NCBI RefSeq assembly: GCF_045037415.1
Contig: NZ_CP173438.1
Source: Escherichia coli
Lineage (GTDB): Bacteria > Pseudomonadota > Gammaproteobacteria > Enterobacterales > Enterobacteriaceae
DNA: 64,000 bases
Strand: one strand, 5' to 3'
The notes beneath the pieces were generated by a model, which had not been told where the DNA came from, did not search any database, and saw only the letters and a list, made by a program, of their open reading frames with translations. The position numbers and the translations under genes were made by a program. Positions 1 to 52,362 of the stretch are shown one piece after another. Within the stretch, counting starts at the first letter, position 1. Every line of letters begins with the position of its first letter.

Positions 1-78
1 TAAACAAGCAGTATTTACTCACAGCGCCCCGCTTTCCGCAGGGCGCGTTACGCAAATACTGCTTTCTCTGGCTCAGGA

Positions 79-2511
79 TTACAACAACTGCGCCAGTCGG
101 TTAATATCCGACTGAATCGCCCCGGCGGTGACGTCGCGCCCTGCACCTGGCCCGCGGATCACCAGCGGGTTGTCGCGATACCAGCGGCTTTCGATGGCAA
201 AGACGTTATCGCATGGCAGTAGTGATGCCAGCGGATGGTCTTCACGCACCGCTTCCACGCCCACACGCGCTTTGCCATTGGCATCGAAACGCGCCACGTA
301 GCGCAGCACCAGCCCCATTTCGCGGGCCGCTTCCAGTCGTTGCACCATCTGCTCGTTAAGTTCATCGCCATTTTCAAAGAAATGGTCGATGCTGCCGCCT
401 TCGCAATGGGCAGGCACCAGTGATTCAACACGTACCTGGTCCGGTTCAATGTTGTAACCCGCTTCACGCGCCAGAATCACCAGCTTGCGCATTACGTCTT
501 TGCCGGAAAGGTCATCACGCGGGTCAGGTTCGGTTAAGCCTTGCTGCCACGCCTGATCCACCAGTTCGGTAAACGGCACGCTACCGTCGAATTGCAGGAA
601 CAGCCAGGAGAGCGTGCCGGAGAAGATCCCACTGATCGACAAAATGGTATCGCCGCTGTCGATCAGATCGCGCACGGTATGGTTGATCGGCAAACCCGCA
701 CCGACGGTGGCGTTGTACAGCCAGTGACGCCCGGTTTTTTCGAAGGCGTCGTGGATCTGGCGATATTTATTGCTGTCGCTTGCTCCTGCCAGTTTGTTGG
801 CACTGATGACGTGGAAACCGTGGCTGGCGAAATCAAGATACTGGTCAGCGAGCTGCTGGCTGGCGGTAACGTCCAGCACCACTAAATCATCATACGGATG
901 GGCGCGCATCCACAGGAACAGCGACTCTTCATCCTGCTCGACCGCTTCATCGTTGAAGAAGGCTAACGCGCGGCTGGCGTCCAGACCGTCATAGCTCAAC
1001 AGGCTACGGCGGCTGTCCACCACGCCTGCCAGCACAAATTCAAAGCCGGTACGTGCCGAAAGCGTACTCTGCTCACGGGCGAACAGTTCCAGCCAGCGGG
1101 AACCGATATTGCCCTTGCCGAACAATACCAGGCCGATGCGTTTTTCCGCGCGGAAGACGGACTGATGCAGCCCCTGAATCAGGCTTTCGGTCGGGCCGGT
1201 GCGCAGTACTGCCACCAGGCTGATGCCGTCATCGGACTGCCAGGTAAATTCGACCGGCTGGCCTTTCAGTTGCTGCCAGAAGCGGTGGCAATGCAGCGGG
1301 TTACGGGTGACGCCCGCCCCAACCATCGCCACCAGCGCCAGCCCCTGACGCAGGCGCAGTTCGCCAGGTAATCCCGCTTCGTCGAGGATTTTCAGCGCAC
1401 TGTCGGCCACTTCTGAGGTGTAGCAAAATTGCAGCAACTGGCGATCGTTATGCACGCCAACCGCCAGTGGACGTACCTGAGCACGTTTCAGGATCTGGTC
1501 GATCTCTTTATGCGCCAGTTTGAAATCCTGGCTGGCGGGCACCTGAAACTCAATCAAGCAGACATCATCATGGCTGGTGACAATACGCGCACCAGTACCG
1601 GAGGCCAGCACGCGTTCAATGCGCGTGGAACCTTGATCCGGCGTGTAGCTACAGCGCAGTTGCAGGTCGATTTCGCTGCCAGAAACGGGCTGTAAAGTAC
1701 GGGCATGAAGAACGGGAGCCGCCAGACGCGCCAGTTCGCTGGCTTCATCCAGACGCAGCAACGGCAGCAGGCAGGCATCTTTCACTTTACGCGGGTCGGC
1801 GCTATATACCCCGGCGACGTCGCTCCAGATGGTTACGCGAGAAACACCCGCCAGCGCACCGATTTGTGTCGCGGAATAGTCGGAACCGTTACGCCCCAGC
1901 AGCACCGTTTCACCGGCGTTGTTACGGCTGATAAACCCGGTCACCACCAGACGTTTGCCCGGATGTTGTACCAGTAGCTGTTGCAGCAACGGGTAAGAAA
2001 GCCCTTCATCAACCTGCGGTTGCGCAGCGCGTTCAGCGCGTAAAAACTCGCGGGCATCAAGCCAGGCCGATGGCAGCCCTTGTTGATTAAGCACCGCAGA
2101 CATCAGGCGCGCCGACCACACTTCACCGTGGCCCACCACTTCCGCATACACCGCATCGTTAATACCGCTGTCGAGCAACGCCGCCAGGCGCTCAAGATCG
2201 CTGACAAAAGCGCTAATGAGGTTATCGGCTTCTTCGGCGGGTAGCAGGCCGCTAATCAGATCGCACTGATAACGACGTAATGTTTGTTGAACCTGATGCG
2301 CAGAGAGACGATCGGTCTGGCTTAGTTTCAACCAGTTAATCAACTGGTTAGTGGTGCTACCGGCGGCGGAAACCACCATCATATCGTCAGGCTGAGAGTA
2401 CTCCGCCATAATGCCCGCGACACGCAAATAACACTTCACATCAGCCAGACTACTGCCACCAAATTTATGCAGTTGACGACCTTTCGCCCCTGCCTGCGCA
2501 ATCACACTCAT
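79..2511 (-). CDS. metL: bifunctional aspartokinase II / homoserine dehydrogenase II
   Basis: 810-aa ORF with N-terminal aspartokinase and C-terminal homoserine dehydrogenase regions; starts 2 nt after the metB stop, as in the metBL operon. Confidence 0.93.
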   Translation of the reverse strand: MSVIAQAGAKGRQLHKFGGSSLADVKCYLRVAGIMAEYSQPDDMMVVSAAGSTTNQLINWLKLSQTDRLSAHQVQQTLRRYQCDLISGLLPAEEADNLISAFVSDLERLAALLDSGINDAVYAEVVGHGEVWSARLMSAVLNQQGLPSAWLDAREFLRAERAAQPQVDEGLSYPLLQQLLVQHPGKRLVVTGFISRNNAGETVLLGRNGSDYSATQIGALAGVSRVTIWSDVAGVYSADPRKVKDACLLPLLRLDEASELARLAAPVLHARTLQPVSGSEIDLQLRCSYTPDQGSTRIERVLASGTGARIVTSHDDVCLIEFQVPASQDFKLAHKEIDQILKRAQVRPLAVGVHNDRQLLQFCYTSEVADSALKILDEAGLPGELRLRQGLALVAMVGAGVTRNPLHCHRFWQQLKGQPVEFTWQSDDGISLVAVLRTGPTESLIQGLHQSVFRAEKRIGLVLFGKGNIGSRWLELFAREQSTLSARTGFEFVLAGVVDSRRSLLSYDGLDASRALAFFNDEAVEQDEESLFLWMRAHPYDDLVVLDVTASQQLADQYLDFASHGFHVISANKLAGASDSNKYRQIHDAFEKTGRHWLYNATVGAGLPINHTVRDLIDSGDTILSISGIFSGTLSWLFLQFDGSVPFTELVDQAWQQGLTEPDPRDDLSGKDVMRKLVILAREAGYNIEPDQVRVESLVPAHCEGGSIDHFFENGDELNEQMVQRLEAAREMGLVLRYVARFDANGKARVGVEAVREDHPLASLLPCDNVFAIESRWYRDNPLVIRGPGAGRDVTAGAIQSDINRLAQLL

Positions 2512-2513
2512 TT

Positions 2514-3674
2514 TTACCCCTTGTTTGCAGCCCGGAAGCCATTTTCCAGGTCGGCAATTAAATCTTCGCCATCTTCAATACCGGTGGAGATACGCAGCAG
2601 CGTCTCGGAGATCCCGGCGGCAGCACGCGCTTCTGGTGCCATGCCTGCATGTGTCATGGTTGCGGCGTGAGAGATTAAACTTTCCACTCCCCCTAATGAT
2701 TCCGCCAGCGTAAACAACGACAGCCCGCCCAGGAAACGACGCAGCGTCTGCTCATCGCCATCCAGTTCAAAACTCAACATTGCGCCAAAGCCTTTTTGCT
2801 GGCGCGCGGCAATTTCATGCCCCTGATTTTCCGGCAGCGACGGGTGATACAGTTTCTTCACCAACGGCTGGGTTTGCAGATATTTCACAATCGCCTGCGC
2901 GTTGCGCTGCGCCAGCTCCATACGCGGCACCAGCGTTCGCAACCCGCGCAGCAGCAGATAGCTGTCAAACGCGCCGCCCGTCACGCCAATATTGTTTGCC
3001 CACCAGGCAAGTTCAGTGACAACGTCCGGGTCTTTAGCAATCACTACGCCTGCCACCACGTCAGAGTGACCGTTCAGATATTTCGTGCATGAATGCAACA
3101 CCAGATCGGCACCTAATGCCAGTGGATTTTGTAATGCCGGGCTTAAGAAGGTGTTATCCACCACGCTCACCGCCCCGACTTCCCTTGCCAGATGGCAAAT
3201 TTTCGCAATATCCACGACGCGTAACAATGGATTACTTGGGCTTTCTACCAGTACCAGTTTGGGTTTTTCTGCCAGCGCTGCCCGTAATGCCTGTTCATCG
3301 CTTTGATCAACAAACAACACGCGATAGCAACCGCGTTTCGCCAGGCTGTCGAACAGGCGATAGCTACCGCCGTAGCAGTCGTGCGGCGCAACCAGCAGAT
3401 CGCCAGGTTTCAAAAAGACGGTCGTTACCAGGTGAATCGCGGACATGCCGGTATTAGTAAGTACGGCACCGGCACCGCCTTCCAGTTCTGCCAGCGCACG
3501 CTGAACCACATCGCGCGTTGGGTTGCCGCGACGCGAGTAATCATGCGCACGTGGTTCATTAAATCCGGTAAAGTTATAGGTACTGGAAAGATGGATGGGA
3601 GGGACAACGCAACCATACTGTTCGTCGTCATTTAACCCGCTACGCACTGCGATGGTGGCCTGTTTACGCGTCAT
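2514..3674 (-). CDS. metB: cystathionine gamma-synthase (PLP-dependent)
   Basis: ORF track gives 445 aa from 3851; the internal start MTRKQATIAVRSG at 3674 gives the expected 386 aa and leaves the operator region free. Confidence 0.92.
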   Translation of the reverse strand: MTRKQATIAVRSGLNDDEQYGCVVPPIHLSSTYNFTGFNEPRAHDYSRRGNPTRDVVQRALAELEGGAGAVLTNTGMSAIHLVTTVFLKPGDLLVAPHDCYGGSYRLFDSLAKRGCYRVLFVDQSDEQALRAALAEKPKLVLVESPSNPLLRVVDIAKICHLAREVGAVSVVDNTFLSPALQNPLALGADLVLHSCTKYLNGHSDVVAGVVIAKDPDVVTELAWWANNIGVTGGAFDSYLLLRGLRTLVPRMELAQRNAQAIVKYLQTQPLVKKLYHPSLPENQGHEIAARQQKGFGAMLSFELDGDEQTLRRFLGGLSLFTLAESLGGVESLISHAATMTHAGMAPEARAAAGISETLLRISTGIEDGEDLIADLENGFRAANKG

Positions 3675-3737
3675 GTGATGAAGTTCCCTGGGCTTTGTCG
3701 GTGAAATGTCAGGCACCAGAGTAAACATTGTGTTAAT

Positions 3738-3769
3738 GGACGTCAATACATCTGGACATCTAAACTTCT
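3738..3769. promoter_or_regulatory. four tandem 8-bp Met-box-like repeats (MetJ operator) in the metB-metJ divergent promoter region
   Basis: GGACGTCA ATACATCT GGACATCT AAACTTCT, each 6/8 to the AGACGTCT Met-box consensus, about 65-95 bp upstream of the metB start. Confidence 0.5.
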
Positions 3770-3950
3770 TTGCGTATAGATTGAGCAAATCCCAAATAGC
3801 CGTTAAAATTATATGCATTATCACGCCGACAGGTGCATTACACGATGTCACGGTAACGCCTGTACGGTAAACTATGCGGGTTTACGGTCAGTACCCACAT
3901 TAACTGTGTGGTCTGGTCTCAATTTATTGACGAAGAGGATTAAGTATCTC

Positions 3951-4268
3951 ATGGCTGAATGGAGCGGCGAATATATCAGCCCATACGCTGAGCACGGCAA
4001 GAAGAGTGAACAAGTCAAAAAGATTACGGTTTCCATTCCTCTTAAGGTGTTAAAAATCCTCACCGATGAACGCACGCGTCGTCAGGTGAACAACCTGCGT
4101 CACGCTACCAACAGCGAGCTGCTGTGCGAAGCGTTTCTGCATGCCTTTACCGGGCAACCTTTGCCGGATGATGCCGATCTGCGTAAAGAGCGCAGCGACG
4201 AAATTCCGGAGGCGGCAAAAGAGATCATGCGTGAGATGGGGATTAACCCGGAGACGTGGGAATACTAA
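3951..4268 (+). CDS. metJ: methionine repressor MetJ
   Basis: ORF track starts at 3813; the internal ATG at 3951 ([18 protein letters not shown]) gives the 105-aa MetJ. Confidence 0.93.
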
Positions 4269-4279
4269 AGCGGAAAAGA

Positions 4280-4308
4280 GCGGCGCGGAGTTAACCAGCC
4301 GCTTTTTT
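4280..4308 (+). terminator. rho-independent terminator downstream of metJ
   Basis: GCGGC / GCCGC stem followed by TTTTTT. Confidence 0.5.
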
Positions 4309-4327
4309 CATACATGGACGTTTAACG

Positions 4328-4936
4328 ATGAAAATCAGGCTACTGATCCCCGGCCTGCTGGTTTCTGTGCCTGCATTTGCCTGGCAACCACAAACCGGCG
4401 ACATCATCTTTCAGATCTCTCGCTCATCGCAAAGTAAAGCGATCCAACTGGCGACCCATTCCGATTACAGCCACACCGGTATGCTGGTGATACGCAACAA
4501 AAAGCCCTACGTCTTTGAAGCCGTCGGCCCGGTAAAATATACCCCGCTGAAACAGTGGATCGCCCACGGTGAAGATAGCAAGTACATCGTGCGTCGCGTT
4601 AAAGGCGAGCTAAATGCCGAACAACAGCAAAAACTGGCGCAAACGGCAAAACGTTATCTCGGTAAACCGTATGACTCCAGCTTCTCGTGGAGCGACGATC
4701 GCCAGTACTGTTCGGAAGTGGTGTGGAAGGTCTACCAGAATGCGCTGGGAATGCGTGTGGGCGAGCAGCAGAAGCTGAAAGAGTTCGATCTTAGTAACCC
4801 GCTAGTTCAGGCAAAGCTCAAAGAACGCTACGGCAAAAATATTCCGCTTGAGGAAACGGTAGTTTCACCACAAGCCGTTTTCGACGCGCCACAACTCACC
4901 ACGGTCGCCAAAGAATGGCCGCTGTTTTCCTGGTAA
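4328..4936 (+). CDS. yiiX: YiiX-like putative secreted hydrolase
   Basis: 202-aa ORF with N-terminal signal peptide (MKIRLLIPGLLVSVPAFA); sits between metJ and rpmE as yiiX does in K-12. Confidence 0.8.
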   Translation: MKIRLLIPGLLVSVPAFAWQPQTGDIIFQISRSSQSKAIQLATHSDYSHTGMLVIRNKKPYVFEAVGPVKYTPLKQWIAHGEDSKYIVRRVKGELNAEQQQKLAQTAKRYLGKPYDSSFSWSDDRQYCSEVVWKVYQNALGMRVGEQQKLKEFDLSNPLVQAKLKERYGKNIPLEETVVSPQAVFDAPQLTTVAKEWPLFSW

Positions 4937-16678: not shown

Positions 16679-17689
16679 ATGAGACGAGAACTTGCCATCG
16701 AATTTTCCCGCGTCACCGAATCAGCGGCGCTGGCTGGCTACAAATGGTTAGGACGCGGCGATAAAAACACCGCGGACGGCGCGGCGGTAAACGCCATGCG
16801 TATTATGCTCAACCAGGTCAACATTGACGGCACCATCGTCATTGGTGAAGGTGAAATCGACGAAGCACCGATGCTCTACATTGGTGAAAAAGTCGGTACT
16901 GGTCGCGGCGACGCGGTAGATATTGCTGTTGATCCGATTGAAGGCACGCGCATGACGGCGATGGGCCAGGCTAACGCGCTGGCGGTGCTGGCAGTAGGCG
17001 ATAAAGGCTGTTTCCTCAACGCGCCAGATATGTATATGGAGAAGCTGATCGTCGGACCGGGAGCCAAAGGCACCATTGATCTGAACCTGCCGCTGGCGGA
17101 TAACCTGCGCAATGTTGCGGCGGCGCTCGGCAAACCGTTGAGCGAACTGACGGTAACGATTCTGGCAAAACCGCGCCACGATGCCGTTATCGCTGAAATG
17201 CAACAACTCGGCGTACGCGTATTTGCTATTCCGGACGGCGACGTTGCAGCCTCAATTCTCACCTGTATGCCGGACAGTGAAGTCGATGTGCTGTACGGCA
17301 TTGGCGGCGCGCCGGAAGGCGTGGTTTCTGCGGCGGTGATCCGCGCATTAGATGGCGACATGAATGGTCGTCTGCTGGCACGTCATGACGTCAAAGGCGA
17401 CAACGAAGAGAATCGTCGCATTGGCGAGCAGGAGCTGGCACGCTGCAAAGCGATGGGCATCGAAGCCGGTAAAGTATTGCGTTTGGGCGATATGGCGCGC
17501 AGCGACAACGTCATCTTCTCTGCCACCGGTATTACCAAAGGCGATCTGCTGGAAGGCATTAGCCGCAAAGGCAATATCGCCACCACCGAAACGCTGCTGA
17601 TCCGTGGTAAATCACGCACCATTCGTCGCATTCAGTCCATCCACTATCTGGATCGTAAAGACCCGGAAATGCAGGTGCACATTCTCTGA
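16679..17689 (+). CDS. glpX: fructose-1,6-bisphosphatase class II
   Basis: 336-aa ORF, third gene of the glpFKX operon. Confidence 0.93.
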   Translation: MRRELAIEFSRVTESAALAGYKWLGRGDKNTADGAAVNAMRIMLNQVNIDGTIVIGEGEIDEAPMLYIGEKVGTGRGDAVDIAVDPIEGTRMTAMGQANALAVLAVGDKGCFLNAPDMYMEKLIVGPGAKGTIDLNLPLADNLRNVAAALGKPLSELTVTILAKPRHDAVIAEMQQLGVRVFAIPDGDVAASILTCMPDSEVDVLYGIGGAPEGVVSAAVIRALDGDMNGRLLARHDVKGDNEENRRIGEQELARCKAMGIEAGKVLRLGDMARSDNVIFSATGITKGDLLEGISRKGNIATTETLLIRGKSRTIRRIQSIHYLDRKDPEMQVHIL

Positions 17690-38700: not shown

Positions 38701-39015
38701 ATGATCCGCAAAGCCTTTGTCATGCAGGTAAACCCCGACGCCCACGAAGAGTATCAGCGTCGGCATAATCCCATCTGGCCGGAACTGGAAGCAGTGCTGA
38801 AATCTCACGGTGCGCATAACTACGCCATCTATCTCGACAAAGCGCGTAATCTGCTATTTGCCACGATAGAGATTGAATCTGAAGAGCGGTGGAATGCGGT
38901 TGCCAGTACAGATGTTTGCCAACGTTGGTGGAAATATATGACCGACGTTATGCCCGCTAATGCGGATAACAGCCCAGTCAGTAGCGAACTGCAAGAAGTG
39001 TTTTACCTGCCTTAA
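38701..39015 (+). CDS. rhaM: L-rhamnose mutarotase
   Basis: 104-aa [49 protein letters not shown]. Confidence 0.9.
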
Positions 39016-39055
39016 TGAGTTGCGGTGCCGGAAAATATCCAGCACCGCCCTTTCA

Positions 39056-40450
39056 TCAGAAGAAGTATTTAAAGCGAACGCGTGCGCCGTAACGGTCATC
39101 ACTATCGTCGCCGTGTATCTTATCGCCGTCGCTATCCAGAATGGAGTAATACGTGCCGAGGTAAATATTAAAGTTCTCCATATCCATCACATTAGCGAAC
39201 TGATAAGACGCATGAATGGTGTGAATGTTGTATGTTCCTTCATCATCAATCCAGCAATCGTTATCACAAACCACGCCACTAAATTCATCAATCTTATTAT
39301 GTGCGTAGATATAACCCAGCTCGAAACGTTTCCACAGCGCGTTAATCCCAGCGGTGAAATCTTTCTCATTATTAGCATCTAAATAGGCGGTATTAAGATT
39401 AACCACGATGCCATTTTCCGGATCGGTTTTCAGGCCATTCCAGGTCATGCTCATGCCATAACCGGTACGATCGGACTGATCGACAAAATTACCCTTGCTA
39501 TCGGTATAACCATAAGCATTATTTACCACGTTCGCTTCCATCGCTGCGGAAACGGTGAATTCTTCCGTCGGCGACCAGGCAATTACCGGACGCAGATAAG
39601 CAACATTTTTCTGCTGTTCCATATCGCGTCCATGATAATTACCGTCGTTATATAAAGATGTTCCGTCTTCCAGTAACGTGTTTAATTCAAAATACCAGTT
39701 ATCGAGTTGTTTGCTGACGAGGAAATTACCGCCAGCGTTAGAACGCCCGCGGCCCTCTTTCATCATATAGATATAACCGCTGCCATCGTCATAAAGATCG
39801 TTCGCAGTATTACCGGAATGTTCAACAAAGGTATCCTGATTCAGCGGGAACATATCGTAGGCTTCAAAACGGCCTACTTTGACCTTCCAGTCGTTTTCTT
39901 TGCCAAAGAAGAAAACCGCATCATCGATATTTACTGAACCGTGCATATCCCCCAGCGGTTGTGCGGAGAACCCAGCGAAATAGCCATTATCCAGTTTTCG
40001 CATACCATCAAAACCTAACAGAATACGACCATTGAGATTCCACTGTTCATTAGTGGGATCGCTATTCACATCAGCGTTGGTCATTGCCAGCAGGCCATGA
40101 TTACTTTCCGCATCCATATTAAATTCTACGTCACCGTAGATTTTTAAATCGCCATACCCTGAAAGCAGGAGATTAGGCGGGGTGGCGTTTTTCTTCTCTG
40201 ACTCCGTCGTTGATTGACCGTTTACCGGCGTGTTGCCCTGTGCGGTTTTAATTTCGCGGATCTCGGCGGCTTGTTGTGTCTGAAGCTGTTTAACCTGCCC
40301 CTCTGCTTTTGCTGCCCGCATTTCTGCCGCTTCCAGGCGTTCTTCCAGCAATGCCATGCGTTGTTCCAGCGTTAAATGCTGTGTTTTTGCCATACCGGTA
40401 CTACATGCCAATAATAAACCGATGGCTAAAGATAATGTCGATTTTTTCAT
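39056..40450 (-). CDS. putative outer-membrane sugar-porin-like protein with N-terminal coiled-coil
   Basis: 464 aa; signal peptide MKKSTLSLAIGLLLACSTGMA, about 50 aa of heptad-like Ala/Glu/Gln-rich sequence, then an aromatic-rich region ending in the C-terminal FKYFF typical of beta-barrel OMPs; AGGGAA Shine-Dalgarno 8 nt upstream; family assignment is from memory of ScrY/RafY-type glycoporins and is uncertain. Confidence 0.65.
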   Translation of the reverse strand: MKKSTLSLAIGLLLACSTGMAKTQHLTLEQRMALLEERLEAAEMRAAKAEGQVKQLQTQQAAEIREIKTAQGNTPVNGQSTTESEKKNATPPNLLLSGYGDLKIYGDVEFNMDAESNHGLLAMTNADVNSDPTNEQWNLNGRILLGFDGMRKLDNGYFAGFSAQPLGDMHGSVNIDDAVFFFGKENDWKVKVGRFEAYDMFPLNQDTFVEHSGNTANDLYDDGSGYIYMMKEGRGRSNAGGNFLVSKQLDNWYFELNTLLEDGTSLYNDGNYHGRDMEQQKNVAYLRPVIAWSPTEEFTVSAAMEANVVNNAYGYTDSKGNFVDQSDRTGYGMSMTWNGLKTDPENGIVVNLNTAYLDANNEKDFTAGINALWKRFELGYIYAHNKIDEFSGVVCDNDCWIDDEGTYNIHTIHASYQFANVMDMENFNIYLGTYYSILDSDGDKIHGDDSDDRYGARVRFKYFF

Positions 40451-40803
40451 TATTTACGTTCCCTGAAATAAAGGAGACCCTACGCTTTCCAAAAGGAATA
40501 CGTATATAGAGAAATATAAGGTGTGCACTTTCGAATTTTTAATCCAACTTCAGCAGGCCGATGGATAGTATCCCGCCATATAATATGAGTAAATCCGCTG
40601 ATTTCCTGGAACGTGAGGAATATAACAATAGTGCCGTTTTTAACTAAATATCGTAAAAAATATTAGATATGATTCACGCTGACTCATAAGCCACAAATAT
40701 AAATAACGCTTAAACAAATTATCTGAGATATTTTAACATTCACAAAATCATTAAATAATGATACTTTATTCACAAAATTTATCCTTCACTCTGCTTTATA
40801 TTG

Positions 40804-41349
40804 TTACGACTTCGTGACATATCCGTGCTCATCACAAACCCGCCCCGCGATTACAATTAACTGAAATATTTCATCGACCATTTCGTTGTAATCGCATAAC
40901 GCTCGTGGAAATGAGTCTTCGGCCATCCAGCTTGAGTTTGCGTCCTGAAGTTGCTCTTTATCCCAGTCAGAGTACGGGACTTTATCTCTGATGCGGCGAA
41001 CGTATTTTTTAGCCTCGAGTTGATACTGGCCTGCCGAATTAATAAACGAGAAATTCATGCCGCTTTTATCCGCTTCTTTGGCTTGCGCCACCAGCGTTTC
41101 CAGTTCAGACACTTTCTTCATTGCCGCTTCTGCATCAAACTTATCTTGCGATATCAGGTTATTAATTTGTTTCGCTGAAATCATGACTGCCAGAGAGTAG
41201 TAGTGGAATGTTTTCCCTTTCGCAAACGCATCGTCTTTATAATTTTCCTGGGTGTAATATTTATCCATTTCGTTAATGGTATTACCCAACGCTACGGCAG
41301 CATCAATATAACTCACCGCCACGCCATCAATAGGTTGCAGCGCAGGCAT
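40804..41349 (-). CDS. hypothetical helical protein (K-12 yiiG position; homology unverified)
   Basis: 184-aa ORF from a GTG at 41358, or 181 aa from the ATG at 41349; no signal peptide; begins just after a hairpin downstream of fdhD. Confidence 0.45.
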   Translation of the reverse strand: MPALQPIDGVAVSYIDAAVALGNTINEMDKYYTQENYKDDAFAKGKTFHYYSLAVMISAKQINNLISQDKFDAEAAMKKVSELETLVAQAKEADKSGMNFSFINSAGQYQLEAKKYVRRIRDKVPYSDWDKEQLQDANSSWMAEDSFPRALCDYNEMVDEIFQLIVIAGRVCDEHGYVTKS

Positions 41350-41402
41350 TAACGCCACTACACGCGTTTTGTTTATAAAAAAATAACAAAATTCACGAAA
41401 TG

Positions 41403-41441
41403 AATAAGTCCTGTAATTTAATATATATCGCAGGACTTATT
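41403..41441 (-). terminator. long inverted repeat downstream of fdhD
   Basis: AATAAGTCCTG - 17 nt - CAGGACTTATT, followed on the minus strand by a T-rich stretch. Confidence 0.45.
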
Positions 41442-41445
41442 TTAA

Positions 41446-42279
41446 TTAATTGCTCAAACGCTGCGGATGGGTATAAACCGTCGCCCGACCCGGTTTACAA
41501 AAGCCCACCAGCGTCAGATTACAGCGCTCAGCCACTTCTACAGCAAGTGTGGTCGCGGCAGACACCGCAAACAAAATCTCTACGCCGCACATCGCCGACT
41601 TTTGCACCATTTCATAACTGGCACGGCTGGAAACCAGCACCGCACCTTGCTGCCAGCTTTCCCCTTCTTGTGATCGGCGGCCTAACAGTTTGTCCAGCGC
41701 CACATGGCGACCCACGTCTTCATGCCCGCCGACCAGTTCGCCAGATGGCAACATCCATGCAGCGGCGTGAGTACAACCAGTCAGTTGCCCCACTGGCTGG
41801 AAATCATTGAGATGACGTAATGCATCATCCAGTTTGTTGAGATCAAACGTCTGGGTGAACGGCAGCGGCTGCACCGGTTTACCGATATCGTTAAGCTGTT
41901 CTACACCGCATACGCCACAGCCCGTACGTCCCGCCAGCGCCCGGCGACGTTCCTTCAACCCCATAAAGCGGCGGCTGGAAAGCTCAATTTGTACTTCCAG
42001 GCCATTACAGGAAGGAACGACATCCATGCCGAAGATATCGCGCGGGCTTTCGATAATTCCTTCGGAAAGCGAAAAACCGAGCGCAAAGTACTCAAGGTCT
42101 TTGGGCGACGCCATCATCACCACGTGCGAAATGCCGTTGTAGACCAGCGCAACGGGAACTTCTTCCGCCACCTCATCTAACCGTGGGTGTTGTAAATCAT
42201 CACGCCGCCATAACTCAATTTGACGAACACCTGTGATATTTGTCACATTCTCGATTTCTTTTTGCTGTGTTTTTTTCAC
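41446..42279 (-). CDS. fdhD: formate dehydrogenase sulfurtransferase/accessory protein FdhD
   Basis: 277-aa ORF divergent from fdoG. Confidence 0.92.
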
Positions 42280-42472
42280 TTTCTATTAACCAGATAAGAA
42301 CACACACACCAACATTATGGTATTCTGTTACAAACCCTTCCTGGATGGAGGGAAATTGAGCCAATTCTGGACCTTTGCGGCCCCTTCCGCAAAGAAAAAT
42401 AACTCCCACTCCCTGCACACGCAGCAAGCGAATGTAAATGGGACGTGACAATGTCGAAACAAGGAGCAATCC

Positions 42473-45400
42473 ATGCAGGTCAGCAGAAGGCAGTTCTTTA
42501 AGATCTGCGCTGGCGGTATGGCAGGCACCACGGCAGCGGCACTGGGTTTTGCACCCAGCGTAGCACTCGCGGAAACCCGGCAGTATAAACTGCTGCGCAC
42601 CCGCGAAACCCGTAATACCTGCACCTATTGTTCCGTAGGCTGTGGGCTGTTGATGTACAGCCTCGGTGACGGAGCAAAAAACGCCAAAGCATCTATCTTC
42701 CATATCGAAGGTGACCCGGATCACCCGGTCAACCGCGGAGCACTTTGTCCGAAAGGCGCTGGCCTGGTGGATTTCATCCACTCCGAAAGCCGTCTGAAGT
42801 TTCCGGAATACCGTGCGCCAGGTTCTGATAAATGGCAGCAAATCAGTTGGGAAGAGGCGTTTGATCGCATCGCCAAACTGATGAAAGAAGACCGCGATGC
42901 AAACTACATTGCGCAAAACGCCGAAGGCGTGACTGTTAACCGCTGGCTCTCCACCGGGATGCTGTGTGCTTCCGCGTCGAGCAACGAAACCGGCTATTTA
43001 ACGCAAAAATTCTCCCGCGCGCTGGGTATGCTCGCGGTCGACAACCAGGCGCGTGTCTGACACGGACCAACGGTAGCAAGTCTTGCTCCAACATTTGGTC
43101 GCGGTGCGATGACCAACCACTGGGTCGACATCAAGAATGCCAACCTCGTCGTGGTGATGGGCGGTAACGCCGCTGAAGCTCACCCGGTCGGGTTCCGCTG
43201 GGCGATGGAAGCCAAAATTCACAACGGCGCGAAGCTGATTGTGATCGATCCTCGCTTTACGCGTACAGCGGCGGTGGCTGACTACTATGCCCCTATCCGT
43301 TCCGGTACTGACATTGCTTTCCTGTCAGGCGTATTGCTGTACCTGCTGAACAATGAAAAATTCAACCGCGAATACACCGAAGCCTATACCAACGCTAGCC
43401 TGATCGTGCGTGAGGATTACGGCTTTGAAGATGGCCTGTTCACCGGCTACGACGCGGAAAAACGCAAGTACGATAAGTCCACCTGGACTTACGAACTGGA
43501 CGAAAACGGCTTCGCCAAACGCGATACTACCCTGCAACATCCACGTTGCGTGTGGAACTTGCTGAAACAGCACGTTTCCCGCTACACGCCAGATGTGGTT
43601 GAAAACATCTGCGGTACGCCAAAAGACGCATTCCTGAAAGTCTGCGAATACATCGCAGAGACCAGTGCTCACGATAAAACTGCCTCGTTCCTTTACGCCC
43701 TCGGCTGGACGCAACACTCCATCGGTGCGCAGAACATCCGTACGATGGCGATGATCCAGTTGCTGCTCGGCAATATGGGGATGGCTGGCGGCGGCGTTAA
43801 CGCCCTGCGCGGTCACTCCAATATTCAGGGGCTGACGGACCTGGGGCTGCTGTCGCAGAGTCTGCCAGGTTACATGACGCTGCCAAGCGAGAAGCAGACC
43901 GATCTGCAAACTTACCTTACCGCCAACACGCCGAAACCACTGCTGGAAGGCCAGGTTAACTACTGGGGCAACTACCCGAAATTCTTCGTCTCTATGATGA
44001 AGGCCTTCTTTGGTGATAAAGCGACGGCGGAAAATAGCTGGGGCTTTGACTGGTTGCCGAAGTGGGATAAAGGCTACGACGTCCTGCAATACTTCGAGAT
44101 GATGAAAGAGGGCAAGGTCAATGGCTATATCTGCCAGGGCTTTAACCCTGTTGCCTCATTCCCGAACAAAAACAAAGTGATCGGCTGTCTGTCGAAGCTG
44201 AAATTCCTCGTGACTATCGACCCGCTGAACACTGAAACCTCTAACTTCTGGCAGAACCACGGTGAACTGAACGAAGTTGACTCGTCGAAGATCCAGACCG
44301 AAGTGTTCCGTCTGCCATCGACCTGCTTCGCGGAAGAGAACGGTTCAATCGTTAACTCTGGTCGCTGGTTGCAGTGGCACTGGAAAGGTGCGGACGCCCC
44401 GGGGATTGCGCTGACTGATGGCGAGATCCTCTCCGGTATCTTCCTGCGCTTGCGCAAGATGTATGCCGAACAGGGTGGCGCGAACCCGGACCAGGTGCTG
44501 AACATGACCTGGAACTACGCCATCCCGCATGAGCCGAAGTCGGAAGAAGTGGCGATGGAGAGCAACGGTAAGGCGCTGGCCGATATTACCGATCCGGCAA
44601 CCGGTGCGGTTATTGTCAAGAAAGGCCAACAACTTAGCTCGTTCGCTCAACTGCGCGATGACGGTACAACCTCCTGTGGCTGCTGGATTTTCGCCGGTAG
44701 CTGGACGCCAGAAGGCAACCAGATGGCGCGTCGTGATAACGCCGATCCGTCTGGCCTCGGTAACACGCTGGGCTGGGCATGGGCATGGCCGCTTAACCGC
44801 CGCATTCTGTATAACCGCGCCTCCGCAGATCCGCAGGGTAACCCGTGGGATCCGAAGCGTCAGTTGCTGAAATGGGACGGCACTAAGTGGACCGGCTGGG
44901 ATATTCCGGACTACAGCGCAGCGCCTCCGGGCAGTGGCGTCGGGCCGTTTATCATGCAGCAGGAAGGCATGGGGCGTCTGTTTGCCCTCGATAAGATGGC
45001 GGAAGGTCCGTTCCCGGAACACTACGAGCCGTTTGAAACGCCGCTGGGAACTAACCCGCTGCATCCAAACGTTATCTCGAATCCGGCGGCGCGTATCTTT
45101 AAAGACGATGCCGAAGCATTGGGGAAAGCCGATAAGTTCCCGTATGTCGGAACCACCTATCGTCTGACCGAGCACTTCCACTACTGGACCAAACACGCGC
45201 TGTTGAACGCGATTTTGCAACCAGAGCAGTTTGTGGAAATCGGGGAGTCGCTGGCGAATAAACTTGGCATTGCCCAGGGCGATACTGTGAAAGTCTCCTC
45301 CAACCGTGGCTATATCAAAGCCAAAGCGGTAGTGACCAAACGTATTCGCACGCTGAAAGCAAACGGCAAAGATATCGATACCATCGGTATTCCGATTCAC

Positions 45401-45523
45401 TGGGGCTATGAAGGTGTTGCGAAAAAAGGCTTTATTGCCAATACGTTGACGCCATTCGTCGGTGATGCGAACACGCAGACGCCGGAGTTTAAGTCCTTCC
45501 TTGTGAATGTGGAAAAGGTGTAA
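42473..45523 (+). CDS. fdoG: formate dehydrogenase-O major subunit (selenocysteine-containing)
   Basis: ORFs 42473-43060 and 43109-45523 are in the same frame, separated only by TGA at 43058-43060, read as Sec; combined 1016 aa; Tat motif RRQFFK; N-terminal 4Fe-4S Cys cluster. Confidence 0.92.
43061..43110 (+). other. putative SECIS stem-loop directing Sec insertion at the fdoG UGA
   Basis: immediately 3' of the in-frame TGA; contains AGCAAG-T-CTTGCT inverted repeat. Confidence 0.5.
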
Positions 45524-45535
45524 CGGAGACGACAT

Positions 45536-46438
45536 ATGGCTTATCAATCGCAAGATATCATTCGTCGTTCCGCGACTAACGGTCTGACCCCCGCGCCTCA
45601 GGCGCGGGACTTCCAGGAAGAAGTGGCGAAACTCATCGACGTTACCACCTGTATCGGCTGTAAAGCCTGTCAGGTGGCGTGTTCAGAGTGGAACGACATT
45701 CGCGATACCGTCGGCAATAACATTGGGGTGTATGACAACCCCAATGATTTAAGTGCCAAATCGTGGACGGTGATGCGATTCTCGGAAGTGGAGCAGAACG
45801 ACAAACTGGAATGGCTGATCCGCAAAGACGGCTGTATGCACTGTTCCGATCCAGGCTGCCTGAAAGCATGCCCGGCGGAAGGGGCAATTATTCAGTATGC
45901 CAATGGTATCGTCGACTTCCAGTCCGAGCAGTGCATCGGCTGCGGTTATTGCATCGCAGGGTGCCCGTTCAACGTGCCACGCCTCAACCCGGAAGACAAC
46001 CGCGTCTACAAATGTACGTTGTGCGTTGACCGCGTGGTGGTTGGGCAAGAACCGGCCTGCGTGAAGACCTGCCCAACGGGCGCGATTCACTTCGGTACGA
46101 AAGAGTCGATGAAAACGCTGGCGAGCGAGCGCGTGGCGGAGCTGAAAACCCGCGGTTACGACAATGCGGGTCTGTACGATCCGGCAGGCGTCGGTGGTAC
46201 ACACGTTATGTACGTACTGCACCATGCTGACAAGCCAAATCTGTATCATGGCTTGCCGGAGAACCCGGAAATCAGCGAAACCGTGAAATTCTGGAAAGGC
46301 ATCTGGAAACCACTCGCAGCTGTTGGCTTTGCGGCTACCTTCGCAGCCAGTATCTTCCACTACGTGGGTGTCGGTCCGAACCGTGCGGATGAGGAAGAGA
46401 ATAATCTGCACGAAGAGAAAGACGAGGAGCGCAAATGA
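45536..46438 (+). CDS. fdoH: formate dehydrogenase-O iron-sulfur subunit
   Basis: 300 aa; four CxxCxxCxxxCP ferredoxin motifs; C-terminal TM anchor. Confidence 0.95.
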
Positions 46439-47070
46439 AACGACGTGACACCATCGTGCGCTACACCGCGCCGGAACGTATCAACCACTGGATCACCGCC
46501 TTCTGCTTCATCCTGGCGGCGGTGAGCGGGCTGGGCTTTTTGTTCCCGTCCTTCAACTGGTTGATGCAAATCATGGGCACACCGCAGCTGGCGCGAATTC
46601 TGCATCCGTTTGTCGGCGTGGTTATGTTTGCCTCGTTCATCATCATGTTTTTCCGTTACTGGCATCACAACCTAATCAATCGGGATGATATCTTTTGGGC
46701 GAAGAATATTCGTAAGATCGTCGTCAACGAGGAAGTAGGTGACACCGGGCGTTATAACTTCGGTCAGAAATGCGTTTTCTGGGCGGCGATTATTTTCCTG
46801 GTCCTGTTGCTGGTGAGCGGCGTGATTATCTGGCGTCCTTATTTTGCGCCTGCTTTCTCAATCCCGGTGATCCGATTCGCGTTAATGCTGCATTCATTTG
46901 CCGCAGTGGCGTTAATTGTGGTTATCATGGTGCATATCTACGCCGCCCTTTGGGTGAAAGGCACGATTACCGCCATGGTGGAAGGATGGGTGACCAGCGC
47001 ATGGGCAAAGAAACATCACCCGCGCTGGTACCGTGAGGTCCGCAAGACAACGGAAAAGAAAGCTGAATGA
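46435..47070 (+). CDS. fdoI: formate dehydrogenase-O cytochrome b556 subunit
   Basis: 211-aa four-helix membrane protein with conserved His; 4-nt overlap with fdoH. Confidence 0.95.
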
Positions 47071-47996
47071 GTATTCGCATAATCCCGCAAGATGAGCTGG
47101 GTTCGAGCGAGAAACGTACGGCGGATATGATTCCGCCGTTATTGTTCCCTCGGCTCAAGAATTTATACAACCGCCGCGCCGAGCGTCTGCGCGAGCTGGC
47201 AGAACATAATCCGCTGGGTGATTACCTGCGCTTTGCTGCGCTTATCGCCCACGCCCAGGAAGTGGTGCTGTACGACCATCCGCTGGAGATGGATCTGACC
47301 ACGCGCATTAAAGAAGCCAGCGCACAAGGCAAGCCCCCGCTGGATATTCACGTTCTGCCGCGTGATAAGCACTGGCAAAAGCTGCTGATGGCGCTGATTG
47401 CTGAGCTGAAACCTGAAATGAGCGGCCCGGCGCTGGCAGTGATTGAGAATCTGGAGAAGGCATCGACTCAGGAGCTGGAAGATATGGCCAGCGCACTGTT
47501 TGCCTCTGATTTCTCGTCCGTCAGCAGCGATAAAGCGCCGTTTATCTGGGCTGCGCTGTCGCTCTACTGGGCGCAGATGGCTAATCTGATCCCCGGCAAA
47601 GCCCGCGCTGAATACGGCGAACAACGTCAATATTGCCCGGTATGTGGCTCTATGCCGGTGTCCAGCATGGTGCAAATTGGCACCACTCAGGGTCTGCGTT
47701 ACCTGCACTGCAACCTGTGTGAAACTGAATGGCACGTAGTGCGCGTAAAATGCAGCAACTGTGAACAGAGCGGCAAACTGCATTACTGGTCGCTGGATGA
47801 CGAACAGGCCGCGATTAAAGCCGAAAGCTGCGATGACTGCGGCACTTACCTGAAGATTCTTTATCAGGAAAAAGAACCGAAAGTTGAAGCCGTGGCAGAT
47901 GACCTCGCCTCTCTGGTACTGGACGCGCGAATGGAGCAAGAAGGCTATGCCCGTAGTTCCATCAACCCGTTCCTGTTTCCGGGTGAAGGGGAGTAA
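47067..47996 (+). CDS. fdhE: formate dehydrogenase maturation protein FdhE
   Basis: 309 aa; CPVCG...CNLCETEWH...CSNCEQ...CDDCGTYLK cysteine pairs. Confidence 0.93.
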
Positions 47997-48177
47997 TCTC
48001 TGACGTTTTCCGGGTGGCGCAGGTCGCCCGGATTACAGTTCATAGGGTGTGACGACACTATCTCTCGTATTCCGCGTTACCTCCTCAAGCTATGCCGCCA
48101 GTGCCTGTTTGGCCTCAATTTTCACGCTGAGAAAATCGATAAGGATATCGATATCAAATAGCCAAATCTTTTTGCCA

Positions 48178-48396
48178 TTACCATTTCTCGCGCAGCTTAC
48201 GCAGGTATTCGACACCATCTTCCTCACACCCTTGCCAGATGCCAGGAACACTGGTTCTTGCTGTTTGCGATTGATTTACCAGGTATTGATCTACCGCTTC
48301 CCGTAATAGGTCTGCACGCGGAAGATTACGCTGCACCTCAAGATCATCAAGTTGCTTAATCACCTCATTCGATAAATCGAGTAAAATTCTGCTCAT
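48178..48396 (-). CDS. ribbon-helix-helix (CopG-like) DNA-binding protein, yiiF-like
   Basis: [39 protein letters not shown] has the RHH beta-strand/helix pattern; 72 aa from the ATG at 48396 (alternative starts 48402, 48420); paralogous to the ORF at 50508-50726. Confidence 0.75.
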
Positions 48397-48510
48397 ATCC
48401 ATACCTGCCAGAGGGTTCATAAATATCTCGCCAATATCATTTTGAATCTATGGAGAGAAAAGTACCCTTGTCGAATCTTTAAAGAAAGCGCATTTACGCA
48501 TCACTTTTTA

Positions 48511-48556
48511 TTTTTGCGAGGCGTTTTCCAGATACGATGTAACAGTTGCAGTTATT
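48511..48556. promoter_or_regulatory. conserved promoter/operator-like motif, copy A
   Basis: TTTTTGCGAGGCGTTTTCCAGATACGATGTAACAGTTGCAGTTATT, recurring at 50820-50866 and in part at 52483-52504. Confidence 0.4.
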
Positions 48557-48709
48557 ACGAAAACCAGTAAAAAATGGAAGTGAAAACAGTCGTGTGAAAA
48601 TTTCTACTCTTTCTGAATTTACTCTATAAAGTTGCCTTTCTCACATCCAATAGCTTAATGTCATCTACCAAGAAAAAACGATAAGTCGTCAGGGAACGGA
48701 ACAGATATA

Positions 48710-49558
48710 ATGAATAAAAACGAATCAATTTCTTACACCGAAATGCAAAAATTTTTTGCCAGAGAAATTAAGGAAGTAGGCGGTAGGCCCATCACTTCTA
48801 AGAATTTAGAGTTAAGTCTGCTACCCATTCACGCCAGGGAAAACCTTTCTGCGCCAGAAATGCCGTGGTATACCGAAGTTAATGATATCTATATGGAGTT
48901 CAGACGCTCACCATTCTGGATGGTTGCCGGTTATGTATTCCTGGGATTTATGCTTTCACTACTTTCCATCTCGATATTATCTATTGTTGCATTCTCATTT
49001 TATGAGATGGGCTTTAATAGTGACTTGTTATTTCTGTATCTACTTGCATTTGTGCTTGGCTGTTTTATATTACCTGGCGCTGCAAAAATTGCTTTTTTCA
49101 CGCCACATTATCTTCCTATAAGATTTAACAGAAAAACACAAAAAATTTATGTTTCAGATTTAATTATTGAAGGCAATATCTTCTTTGGAAAAATAAAACT
49201 CACTTTTCATGAATATGACTGGAAAGATGTTGAAGGTTGGGAGGTGAGTAGACATTTCAGTAAAAGTATGCCTTACAATGGATTACATCTGGTAGTTAAT
49301 AGAGAAAATGATATAAATGCACTGCGACAGACACGCGTTTATACAACCCGTGCACCGTGGAGTGCACAAGAAATGGCAAGACAAAAGAACTATATCCCCC
49401 AAATATGGCTTTATTGCCATAATTATATGGCTTATAAAACTGTGTCTGGTGCAAAGAACAAACCACAACCATTTATTTTTTTAAGAAACAATTGGCTATT
49501 TAAATGGCCAAAAGAAATGGATAAACGTTCCAGAAGCTCAAAGATACTGTCTGAATAA
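48710..49558 (+). CDS. hypothetical membrane protein (two adjacent TM helices), unknown family
   Basis: 282-aa ORF in low-GC DNA (first 200 nt of the ORF about 38% GC by hand count); TM hairpin FWMVAGYVFLGFMLSLLSISILSIVAFSF / LLFLYLLAFVLGCFILPGAAKIAFF; purine-rich SD-like stretch upstream; no family recognised. Confidence 0.6.
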   Translation: MNKNESISYTEMQKFFAREIKEVGGRPITSKNLELSLLPIHARENLSAPEMPWYTEVNDIYMEFRRSPFWMVAGYVFLGFMLSLLSISILSIVAFSFYEMGFNSDLLFLYLLAFVLGCFILPGAAKIAFFTPHYLPIRFNRKTQKIYVSDLIIEGNIFFGKIKLTFHEYDWKDVEGWEVSRHFSKSMPYNGLHLVVNRENDINALRQTRVYTTRAPWSAQEMARQKNYIPQIWLYCHNYMAYKTVSGAKNKPQPFIFLRNNWLFKWPKEMDKRSRSSKILSE

Positions 49559-49582
49559 GCATAATAATGAAGGATTTCGACT

Positions 49583-50323
49583 ATGATTAACAAACTTACT
49601 CTTCCTTGGCCGGTATTATTTTTAGAATTTTTTGTGCGAGAAGTTGCCTTTAAGGGTAAGGGAATTGTTCGTTCTACATTACCAGCAGATGCCCATTTTT
49701 ATACCGGTGGGTCAAAAGCCCTGCGTTATCACCTACAACCAGGAAACCAATGGCCAAACTATATATGGCATGATGATATAGGTGATATTGTACCGTTTCC
49801 TCTACCCTCACTTCCGCTTACATTTACCGCTAACCGACCCACATTTAATTCCAGAGAATTAGCGGATAAATGGATGAAGGATAATATTCATACCGCTGTC
49901 ATCATGGCGGGGGAATTTCTGTCTGCTAATGAATGGATTCGCCGCAAAAACCAGCTTAAAACTAGTGTACACCCTGCGTCAGTTGCTTCTTTCGCACCCT
50001 ATGGCTTTAACATTAACCAGTGTGATGACGATGGCAATCTTTGGACTAATTTCCCACGTCCCCACATCAAATTAAAAATCGCACCAGGAAAAACAGCTTG
50101 TTTTCTCTGCCGCCGGGAAGAGCTTTTATTTGGTTATGATGAAGCACATAATCACTACCAGCCGAATCTTAATCTGGTTTTATTTGTGAAAAATCATGGG
50201 TTGCATAAGGATGTTTACCTAAAATCTCATGACGATAAAAGTGAATACGATAGCAGAATATTATGTAACGAAAAATTTACCACTTATGATTTCCGTAAAA
50301 ACCGGTCCAGATACAGCTTTTGA
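49583..50323 (+). CDS. hypothetical soluble protein, unknown family
   Basis: 246-aa ORF starting 24 nt after the upstream gene with a GAAGGA Shine-Dalgarno; AT-rich codon usage; no motif recognised. Confidence 0.6.
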   Translation: MINKLTLPWPVLFLEFFVREVAFKGKGIVRSTLPADAHFYTGGSKALRYHLQPGNQWPNYIWHDDIGDIVPFPLPSLPLTFTANRPTFNSRELADKWMKDNIHTAVIMAGEFLSANEWIRRKNQLKTSVHPASVASFAPYGFNINQCDDDGNLWTNFPRPHIKLKIAPGKTACFLCRREELLFGYDEAHNHYQPNLNLVLFVKNHGLHKDVYLKSHDDKSEYDSRILCNEKFTTYDFRKNRSRYSF

Positions 50324-50507
50324 TAGTTTATTATCCTGGATGATATCAGGAGCGATATCTATAAAGTTTATGCATTCCCTGTGATCAATTTTTCCTGTTA
50401 GTGAGCACAAATTCAATCTGATTGATGCCAGAATAAAGGCATCTGGCATGTTGATTTTATGTTCCAGAATGACAAAACATTGCTGTTAATAAGCACGACT
50501 CTTTTTG

Positions 50508-50726
50508 TCATTCCTCATGCCACTTACCCTGTTCTTCAACACCAACTACCTCACCCCTTTGCCTGTCACTTTTTGCCTTACGCACCGGAAATTGCTGACG
50601 CTCCAGATATTGCTCTACCGCTTCGCGTAAAATTGCAGAGCGCGAAACCTTACGCCAGCCCCGAAGCTTGTTCAGCCGTTTAATTGCCTCTTCTGATAAA
50701 TGAAGAAAAACCGTATTCATCGCCAT
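50508..50726 (-). CDS. ribbon-helix-helix (CopG-like) DNA-binding protein, yiiE-like
   Basis: MAMNTVFLHLSEEAIKRLNKLRGWRKVSRSAILREAVEQYL; 72 aa from the ATG at 50726 (alternatives 50720, 50753). Confidence 0.75.
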   Translation of the reverse strand: MAMNTVFLHLSEEAIKRLNKLRGWRKVSRSAILREAVEQYLERQQFPVRKAKSDRQRGEVVGVEEQGKWHEE

Positions 50727-50819
50727 TGCCACCACCTTACATATATTACTCATTAATGTATGTGCGAAAATTACGCCGAAAAATCATTTAAAAAAAGCGG
50801 ATTTTTGCATGTCGTTTTG

Positions 50820-50866
50820 TTTTTGCGAGACTGCATCCAAAGATAATGTAACAGTTGCAGTTATTT
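50820..50866. promoter_or_regulatory. conserved promoter/operator-like motif, copy B
   Basis: TTTTTGCGAGACTGCATCCAAAGATAATGTAACAGTTGCAGTTATTT; shares TTTTTGCGAG and ATGTAACAGTTGCAGTTATT with copy A. Confidence 0.4.
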
Positions 50867-51122
50867 CAATTGTTACTCAAAAATGGTTTATTACTTTTAA
50901 TTAAGCGGGGGCACATCTACAGAAAAGAAACAACAAATAATAAGGATGAATTATGGATGCTATAAATATTTTATATTCAAGAATATTTTTTTGATTGGGT
51001 CTTCATTTGCTTCATCAGGATGGTGTACCCGAAAAAGTCAGCAGCTTTACCGCACCAGGGGTTAAGGTGAAATCTACCATTCATAACGACCGGTCAGTGC
51101 CGCACCAACCGGTCTTTAATTG

Positions 51123-51401
51123 TTAGTAGTAGTAAATTTGTGGATAACAGTCCGGGAACCAGACGATTCCTTCCGGATCATCCCCCTGCATTACCCGATG
51201 ACATTGGCGTCGATCATCTGCGCGACGGCGAAGCGTAGTATAGAGCCGCTTCCATTCATGATCGCCCGGTGTACTGTAGTTTACCCAACAATCCATTGAA
51301 GGGTGACGCCATTTACCTGTAAGTGTTGGGATCCCTGAATGCTTATGCGGCTTCGCTTTACCATTACGATCCCTATCTTTACGCGTATTAAACGTGGACA
51401 T
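51123..51401 (-). CDS. hypothetical small basic Cys/His-rich protein
   Basis: 92-aa ORF; no recognisable family; may be a fragment. Confidence 0.3.
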   Translation of the reverse strand: MSTFNTRKDRDRNGKAKPHKHSGIPTLTGKWRHPSMDCWVNYSTPGDHEWKRLYTTLRRRADDRRQCHRVMQGDDPEGIVWFPDCYPQIYYY

Positions 51402-51462
51402 TTTTAGTCTCCTGTTAAGAGTTCTAAAAATGTGCTTCCTTAAAATAGTTCATCATTTTCCC

Positions 51463-51675
51463 TTAATTCGCATAGCGTGCTTTTGCACGAATTTCCGATA
51501 CGCGGGGACCATTATGATAGCGTCGATGCCCACACATCCAACAAGAACAAATACAGGGAGTACGAAAGCAAATACCTGATGCTTTTTTGCTTCCATCGCC
51601 TGCAGTGCGATAACGACAGCGGATTTTTTTTAATCGCACCATATGATGGCGACGTTCAGCACGATTACGGGTCAT
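51463..51675 (-). CDS. hypothetical small basic Cys-rich protein (possible zinc ribbon)
   Basis: 70-aa ORF with CxC...CxxC spacing (CICSCWMCGH); no recognisable family. Confidence 0.3.
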   Translation of the reverse strand: MTRNRAERRHHMVRLKKIRCRYRTAGDGSKKASGICFRTPCICSCWMCGHRRYHNGPRVSEIRAKARYAN

Positions 51676-51759
51676 AGCAAAACTCCTGAACAGGCGGCAC
51701 TATGCCGCTTTCATAGGAGTTCTGAATGCTGGTGCTTTCTGTATGGCATAACCATGCCT

Positions 51760-52050
51760 CTAACGGTTAAGTGCTTGCAGCACATGTTGCGGATCATTGG
51801 CAATCGCTCGCAGCAAAGCCTTTGCAGGCCCGGTCGGTGAACGTCGCCCCTGCTCCCAGTTACGCAACGTGTCTACGCTTACGGAAATAAGATCGGCAAA
51901 TTTAGATTGTGACAACCCTGAAGCGCGGCGTATTTCTTTGATTTTCATAGCATCAACTTCAAAAGTCCGTGAAGGCTGTCGCGTTCCTTCAATAATTTCA
52001 TTCATCTGGGCCATGCTGTGAGTCAACCGCTCAAAAAGTGCCTTATCCAT
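51760..52050 (-). CDS. HTH (XRE-type) antitoxin, HigA-like
   Basis: 96 aa; helix-turn-helix IRRASGLSQSKFADLISVSVDTLRNWEQGRR; ATG directly abuts the upstream toxin stop (TAA-ATG). Confidence 0.75.
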   Translation of the reverse strand: MDKALFERLTHSMAQMNEIIEGTRQPSRTFEVDAMKIKEIRRASGLSQSKFADLISVSVDTLRNWEQGRRSPTGPAKALLRAIANDPQHVLQALNR

Positions 52051-52362
52051 TTACCACCTCGTATTTAACAACCGGAGCATTGCTTTTTCCTGGGGAGACA
52101 GATCATCTTTAATACCCTTACGATAAATAAGCAGTAATCTGATCTCATAATGTTTAACCTGATGAAAGTAAATAACCCTGACACCAGCACGTTTCCCCTT
52201 TCCTCCTGAGACCCATCGAACCTTTCTTAACCCACCAGTTTCAGGTATTACCTCACCATAGTCAGGATTCAAGGCCAGGAAAAACTGAAAACGACTGAAT
52301 TCATCGTCGTTCAGCAGTTTTTGAACATCTTCAGTAAAAATTTCCGTTTCGATGAAGAGCAT
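52051..52362 (-). CDS. RelE/ParE-superfamily toxin, HigB-like (toxin-first arrangement)
   Basis: 103 aa, MLFIETEIFTEDVQKLLNDDEF...GGLRKVRW...GVRVIYFH...IRLLLIYRKG; size, basic patches and coupling to a downstream HTH partner. Confidence 0.7.
   Translation of the reverse strand: MLFIETEIFTEDVQKLLNDDEFSRFQFFLALNPDYGEVIPETGGLRKVRWVSGGKGKRAGVRVIYFHQVKHYEIRLLLIYRKGIKDDLSPQEKAMLRLLNTRW

Follow-up and report, generated by a model that had tools for sequence, protein, structure and literature searches.

The window that we analyzed is a 64,000-nucleotide stretch of an Escherichia coli chromosome (contig NZ_CP173438.1) that displays the gene order yiiX, metJ, metB and metL in common with K-12. Its minus strand carries metB (2514..3674), which codes for the 386-aa cystathionine gamma-synthase, followed by metL (79..2511), whose start is 2 bp past the metB stop according to both the list of open reading frames and the annotation. 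The two genes are reported to belong to one operon (PMC3228920), and metB is the first gene of this metBL operon under operator control, with metL being co-transcribed from the metB promoter. On the plus strand, metJ (3951..4268) codes for the Met repressor, a SAM-dependent protein of 105 aa for which the boxes described below are the binding sites. Both metB and metJ are annotated as such, with the same limits, in SK1144 and K-12. The MetJ protein shows 100% identity to that of K-12, and MetB is 99.5% identical to its K-12 counterpart over the part that was compared. Given these gene limits, and as is evident from the sequence and the list of open reading frames, positions 3675-3950 are exactly the metB-metJ intergenic region of 276 bp.

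The frames of both genes remain open upstream of these starts, and it could be proposed that the region is coding, with a long metB (from GTG 3851) and a long metJ (from ATG 3813) as the real genes and the boxes lying inside an N-terminal extension of MetB. Beyond the open frames themselves, every observation that bears on this proposal opposes it, and we regard it as exceedingly improbable. The annotated starts are the short forms; the 104-residue crystallised chain of PDB 1CMA/1CMB/1CMC, of which 1CMA is the operator complex, corresponds to MetJ residues 2-105 and hence lacks only the first residue of the short form; in a tblastn comparison with about 30 Enterobacterales, the alignments of both MetB and MetJ start at residue 1 or 2; the intergenic lengths in Enterobacterales vary regardless of frame, falling in all three classes modulo 3; and conservation collapses beyond the promoter/operator block (see below). 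On the basis of the annotation, the 1CMA structure, the homologue alignments and the frame-independent spacer lengths, the shorter starts favored in an earlier note on this DNA are right. That note had further stated that the over-extended versions of both genes would cover the operator, which holds for metB, whose long frame from GTG 3851 spans the boxes, but not for metJ, whose long frame begins at 3813, with 44 bp between it and the boxes, and overlaps only the metJ-proximal 3813-3950. The locus matters solely as an annotation check, which confirms the short metB and metJ starts and places the operator and the promoters in this strain.

Within the intergenic region, motif scores, identity with K-12 and conservation delineate a MetJ operator of four contiguous 8-bp Met boxes (3738..3769). 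Read on the metB strand, these are box 1, AGAAGTTT (3769..3762; 6.78 bits), box 2, AGATGTCC (3761..3754; 8.96 bits), box 3, AGATGTAT (3753..3746; 8.57 bits), and box 4, TGACGTCC (3745..3738; 6.87 bits). Every box matches the consensus AGACGTCT at six of the eight positions, and the array as a whole scores 24/32 against (AGACGTCT)x4. The array is separated from the metB ATG by 63 bp, so that the boxes occupy 64-95 bp upstream of metB, closely agreeing with the four contiguous boxes at about 65-95 bp of the earlier note; they also lie, as stated there, on the far side of metJ, with 181 bp between them and the metJ ATG. Given that no box agrees with the consensus at more than six of eight positions, strong binding is likely to depend on cooperativity, a property known from the literature. 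A potential fifth box, ATACGCAA (3777..3770), would bring the score to 28/40 for five boxes, but was rejected as it attains only -0.88 bits, which is below the threshold. Apart from the GACGTC palindrome in box 4 and a hairpin at 3864-3888, a repeat finder detected no inverted repeat in the region.

MetJ and its Met boxes are a textbook case of DNA recognition by a beta-ribbon and of cooperative SAM-dependent repression, for which this locus is the original example. Alignment to the K-12 metB/metJ operator, the check proposed in the earlier note, leaves the boxes unchanged: the spacer is identical to that of K-12 MG1655 (NC_000913.3, 4128396-4128671) at 275 of the 276 positions, with the sole difference (A versus G at window 3901) being outside and far from the boxes. 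Published Table S1 of PMC3228920 gives four boxes, 31.2 bits, a gap of 63 and the sequence agaagtttagatgtccagatgtattgacgtcc for b3939 metB, and four boxes, a gap of 181 and the reverse complement of agaagtttagatgtccagatgtattgacgtcc for b3938 metJ. The 32-bp sequence, the box count and both gaps of the K-12 operator (metJBLF cluster) are therefore identical to those in the window, and the identity with K-12 together with the Table S1 match bears out the description of the region as a metB-metJ divergent control region with tandem Met boxes. Strain background alone sets the two apart, with the window displaying an accessory gene beside metL that K-12 lacks. More broadly, the segment 3500-4100 of the window shows 100% identity to SK1144 and 99% to K-12, and all but one of 5426 complete E. 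coli genomes contain it (5425/5426). The operator segment itself (52 bp) is at least 99% identical in 4440/5426 complete E. coli genomes, and in two variant strains that we inspected, the SNPs fall within the 5′ UTR and the spacer of the metB promoter, with the boxes unchanged. The feature is thereby confirmed as the long-known metB/metJ MetJ operator, unchanged from K-12, already known and ordinary, and nothing in the window alters existing knowledge.

[quoted passage not shown] In the rows of Table S1 of PMC3228920 considered here, those of metF, metA, metE/metR, metC, metK, metNIQ and mmuP are composed of two to four tandem degenerate AGACGTCT octamers. As at metB/metJ, these arrays are next to or overlap promoters, and the metE/metR array is likewise common to a pair of divergent genes. 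Among the K-12 rows examined in that table, metB/metJ has the highest bit total (31.2), followed by mmuP (27.9), metA (27.2) and metF (24.95). A difference is seen with respect to metF, where the boxes have been reported to overlap the -10 element (bioRxiv 10.1101/254623), whereas those of metB/metJ appear to overlap -35 elements (see below).

To assess conservation beyond E. coli, we used a degenerate DNA pattern for a conserved 15-residue MetJ peptide, which, in a collection that represents each species by one genome, recovered 120 loci; 84 of these (K-12 excluded) feature divergent adjacent metJ and metB genes with a spacer of 159-375 bp. A threshold-passing Met-box site is found in all 84 of these other loci, which span several gammaproteobacterial orders, and the number of boxes is exactly four in each of the 30 Enterobacterales loci. 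The best four-box scores across the loci range from 20 to 27 (median 25), as against 14.8 +/- 1.2 in shuffled spacers. When the window was aligned with 29 Enterobacterales spacers, the boxes were 95% identical to the window as opposed to 52% for the remaining spacer, and a conserved block extended over approximately 3737-3815. Across Enterobacterales, the gap between the array and metB is fixed (50-66 bp) and that between the array and metJ is variable (94-283 bp). Vibrionales, Aeromonadales and Orbales likewise display mostly four boxes, common to both genes, between divergent metJ and metB, but with the reverse spacing: the array is held about 75 bp from metJ (medians 75-76), and its distance from metB varies between 50 and 158 bp. 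We also observed metJ-metB loci with Met boxes in contigs labelled as a Neisseriaceae MAG (L117; 12.8 kb, with low coverage), as the SAR92 clade (L120) and as Orbaceae/Gilliamella (L041, L066, L081), all of which are outside the five orders to which MetJ was limited in an earlier survey (PMC3228920); the Neisseriaceae label of L117 may be a binning error.

The degeneracy of the boxes raises the question of whether AT-rich promoter DNA has produced these octamers by chance, with no operator function. In favor of this, every box departs from the consensus at two positions, no family of direct repeats in the region emerged from a generic repeat finder, a search of the window with the ideal 32-mer at up to three mismatches returned no match, and the published thresholds alone yield about 0.6 sites per random 64 kb. 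The two empty searches are accounted for by the boxes being too degenerate for seed-based detection and by the real array having eight mismatches. The scores, for their part, far exceed all random controls. By consensus matches, 24/32 is the top four-box score in the 64-kb window, with the next unrelated site at 19/32, a maximum of 21/32 over 300 Markov-1 random 64-kb sequences and a binomial expectation of 2.7e-4 sites per window. By the published MetJ weight matrix, taken along with its thresholds from Augustus & Spicer 2011 (PMC3228920, Table 3), an operator has at least two adjacent boxes, each with at least one quarter of the consensus bits, and a total that is at least the consensus score; these translate to 3.15 bits per box and 12.58 bits in total. 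The array totals 31.18 bits and is the only threshold-passing site in the 64-kb window, with the maximum in 100 random 64-kb sequences being 19.2 bits. The best two-box match outside the operator, TGACGTCA TGACGTGC (17378-17393, inside glpX), scores 11/16 and fails the thresholds, and we attribute it to chance. Together with the identity to an experimentally studied K-12 site, the conservation of the boxes over the flanking spacer in Enterobacterales and the comparable site in 84/84 other loci, these scores leave a vanishingly small probability of chance resemblance, which we consider to be already effectively refuted.

The promoters surrounding the array were predicted from hexamers, conservation and published interference data. 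The predicted metB(L) promoter (3718..3746, minus strand) has a -35 hexamer TTGACG (3746..3741), a 17-bp spacer and a -10 hexamer TACTCT (3723..3718). It matches the consensus at 8/12 positions and is not in the promoter-scan list; its hexamers are conserved in Enterobacterales and the intervening spacer is not. Box 4 overlaps the TTGACG -35, and the hexamers and their conservation predict a metBL start near 3711. On the opposite strand, a candidate upstream metJ promoter (3753..3782), which is probably PmetJ1, combines a -35 hexamer TGGACA (3753-3758), sitting inside boxes 2 and 3, with an 18-bp spacer and a -10 hexamer TAGATT (3777-3782), scores 9/12 in the scan and falls within the conserved block 3737-3815. 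A second candidate (3781..3809), probably PmetJ2, has a -35 hexamer TTGAGC (3781-3786) that begins 11 bp past the last box, a 17-bp spacer and a -10 hexamer TAAAAT (3804-3809); it also scores 9/12, and its hexamers are 80-100% conserved in Enterobacterales. The third, PmetJ3, is the promoter nearest metJ, whose -10 is overlapped by published CRISPRi protospacers (PMC5240198). These protospacers match the window at approximately 3847-3890, and this placement points to TAAACT (3868-3873) as the likely -10 and, across a 17-bp spacer, to the -35-like ATGTCA (3845-3850) of a promoter at 3845..3873. About 75 bp separate PmetJ3 from the operator, and it is probably this metJ promoter that escapes repression; one of the three metJ promoters has been described as constitutive (PMC3228920).

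The metJ-side part of the conserved block, approximately 3770-3815, matches the boxes in its degree of conservation across Enterobacterales. Most simply, this would be explained by the hexamers of metJ P1 and P2 along with their spacers. A site for a second, undescribed regulator, or a far-upstream metB promoter using TATAAT (3814..3809), would imply that the block holds more than these two promoters, which we consider unlikely. With regard to the latter, the metB strand displays a perfect TATAAT (3809-3814) within the conserved block and a GATAAT (3817-3822) at its poorly conserved edge, approximately 135-148 bp upstream of the metB ATG; neither has a convincing -35, and both are probably the mere complement of the AT-rich -10 region of metJ P2. 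TATAAT (3814..3809) was rejected as part of a second metB promoter, as it is accompanied by no acceptable -35 or TGn element.

Downstream of this block, the E. coli metJ leader is long and poorly conserved (approximately 3830-3915, including PmetJ3). It is absent in Pectobacterium, Brenneria and Dickeya, where the array-metJ gap is 94-96 bp, and looks like a lineage-specific expansion. It contains the aforementioned hairpin (3864-3888), an imperfect 9-nt pairing of ACGGTAAAC / GTTTACGGT around a 7-nt loop, which overlaps the likely -10 and start region of PmetJ3. Comparison of 3500-4400 with Rfam gave no RNA-family hit at E <= 1, and the predicted fold of the metJ leader (3816-3960; -42.3 kcal/mol, z = -2.08) is unremarkable.

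The biochemical framework for this arrangement comes from the literature. A MetJ homodimer binds one 8-bp metbox with SAM as the corepressor, dimers form arrays on adjacent boxes, and at least two adjacent boxes are needed for functional repression (PMC2775130, PMC3228920). The known operators of E. coli (W3110) have been assayed by lacZ reporters, containing 400 bp upstream of each gene, and by gel shift (PMC3228920). Repression of Ec.metJ is reported as weak, about 2-fold (to about half), which the authors explained by the constitutive member of the three metJ promoters. MetJ autoregulation is reported for 96% of species (PMC3228920). A review (PMC3274233) that mixes up MetJ with the leucine zipper of MetR was not relied upon. 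For the window, MetJ binding and repression at the operator, dependence on SAM, cooperativity and the presence of three metJ promoters are drawn from published work.

The gene for the cognate repressor adjoins the operator, the site is 63 bp from the metB start codon while overlapping the predicted -35 elements of both metB and the upstream metJ promoter, and its boxes stand out from the spacer in conservation. We are therefore highly confident that 3738-3769 is the common operator of the divergent metBL and metJ units, at which MetJ-SAM occludes back-to-back promoters. We propose that, when S-adenosylmethionine is abundant, SAM-carrying MetJ homodimers would settle on the array, one on each 8-bp box, with each inserting a two-stranded beta-ribbon into the major groove. 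Neighboring dimers would touch, and hence the four would load cooperatively on the 32-bp array. The loaded array would cover the metB -35 (TTGACG, 3746..3741) along with the DNA just upstream, as well as the opposite-strand -35 (TGGACA, 3753-3758) of the most upstream metJ promoter, and by covering both -35 regions it would shut RNA polymerase out of the back-to-back promoters. The second metJ promoter would be crowded by the four dimers, and PmetJ3, about 75 bp off, would be left free. The expected outcome is that metBL is strongly repressed and metJ only about half, as the downstream promoter (-10 TAAACT) beyond the array would keep supplying the repressor.

It might instead be argued that the operator controls metBL only, with the metJ promoters not meaningfully affected and no true autoregulatory operator being present. 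The 181 bp separating the boxes from the metJ ATG, the fixed distance of the Enterobacterales boxes from metB rather than from metJ, the weak reported repression of metJ (about 0.5) and the remoteness of PmetJ3 from the boxes are all in line with this argument. Yet the metJ strand has one promoter-like -35 within boxes 2 and 3 and another 11 bp beyond the array, both in the conserved block; the boxes of Vibrionales, Aeromonadales and Orbales keep a near-fixed distance of about 75 bp from metJ; autoregulation is widespread and the repression of Ec.metJ is measurable (PMC3228920); and the K-12 literature reports box- and MetJ-dependent repression of the upstream metJ transcripts. Hence, restriction of the operator to metBL is very unlikely, and we favor an operator common to both units.

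Outside the metJBL genes, two other places in the window are of note. Positions 1-115 (plus strand) are the 3′ end of a gene for a 376-aa hypothetical protein (WP_000105529.1 in SK1144), which converges on metL and shares 37 nt with it at the metL stop region (79-115). The first 78 bases of the window are found in only 1178/5426 complete E. coli genomes, including ST131, and K-12 lacks the WP_000105529.1 gene and has metF directly after metL. The occurrence of the gene in a minority of genomes and the K-12 arrangement together indicate an accessory insertion between metL and metF. Farther along, between rhaM and fabY (approximately 39000-52500), several genes are annotated without K-12-style names. 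These include genes for a carbohydrate porin, two small ribbon-helix-helix proteins, a DUF6708 protein, hypothetical proteins, nadS and an alpha/beta hydrolase, as well as a DUF3829 pseudogene, with fdhD and the fdo genes lying among them.
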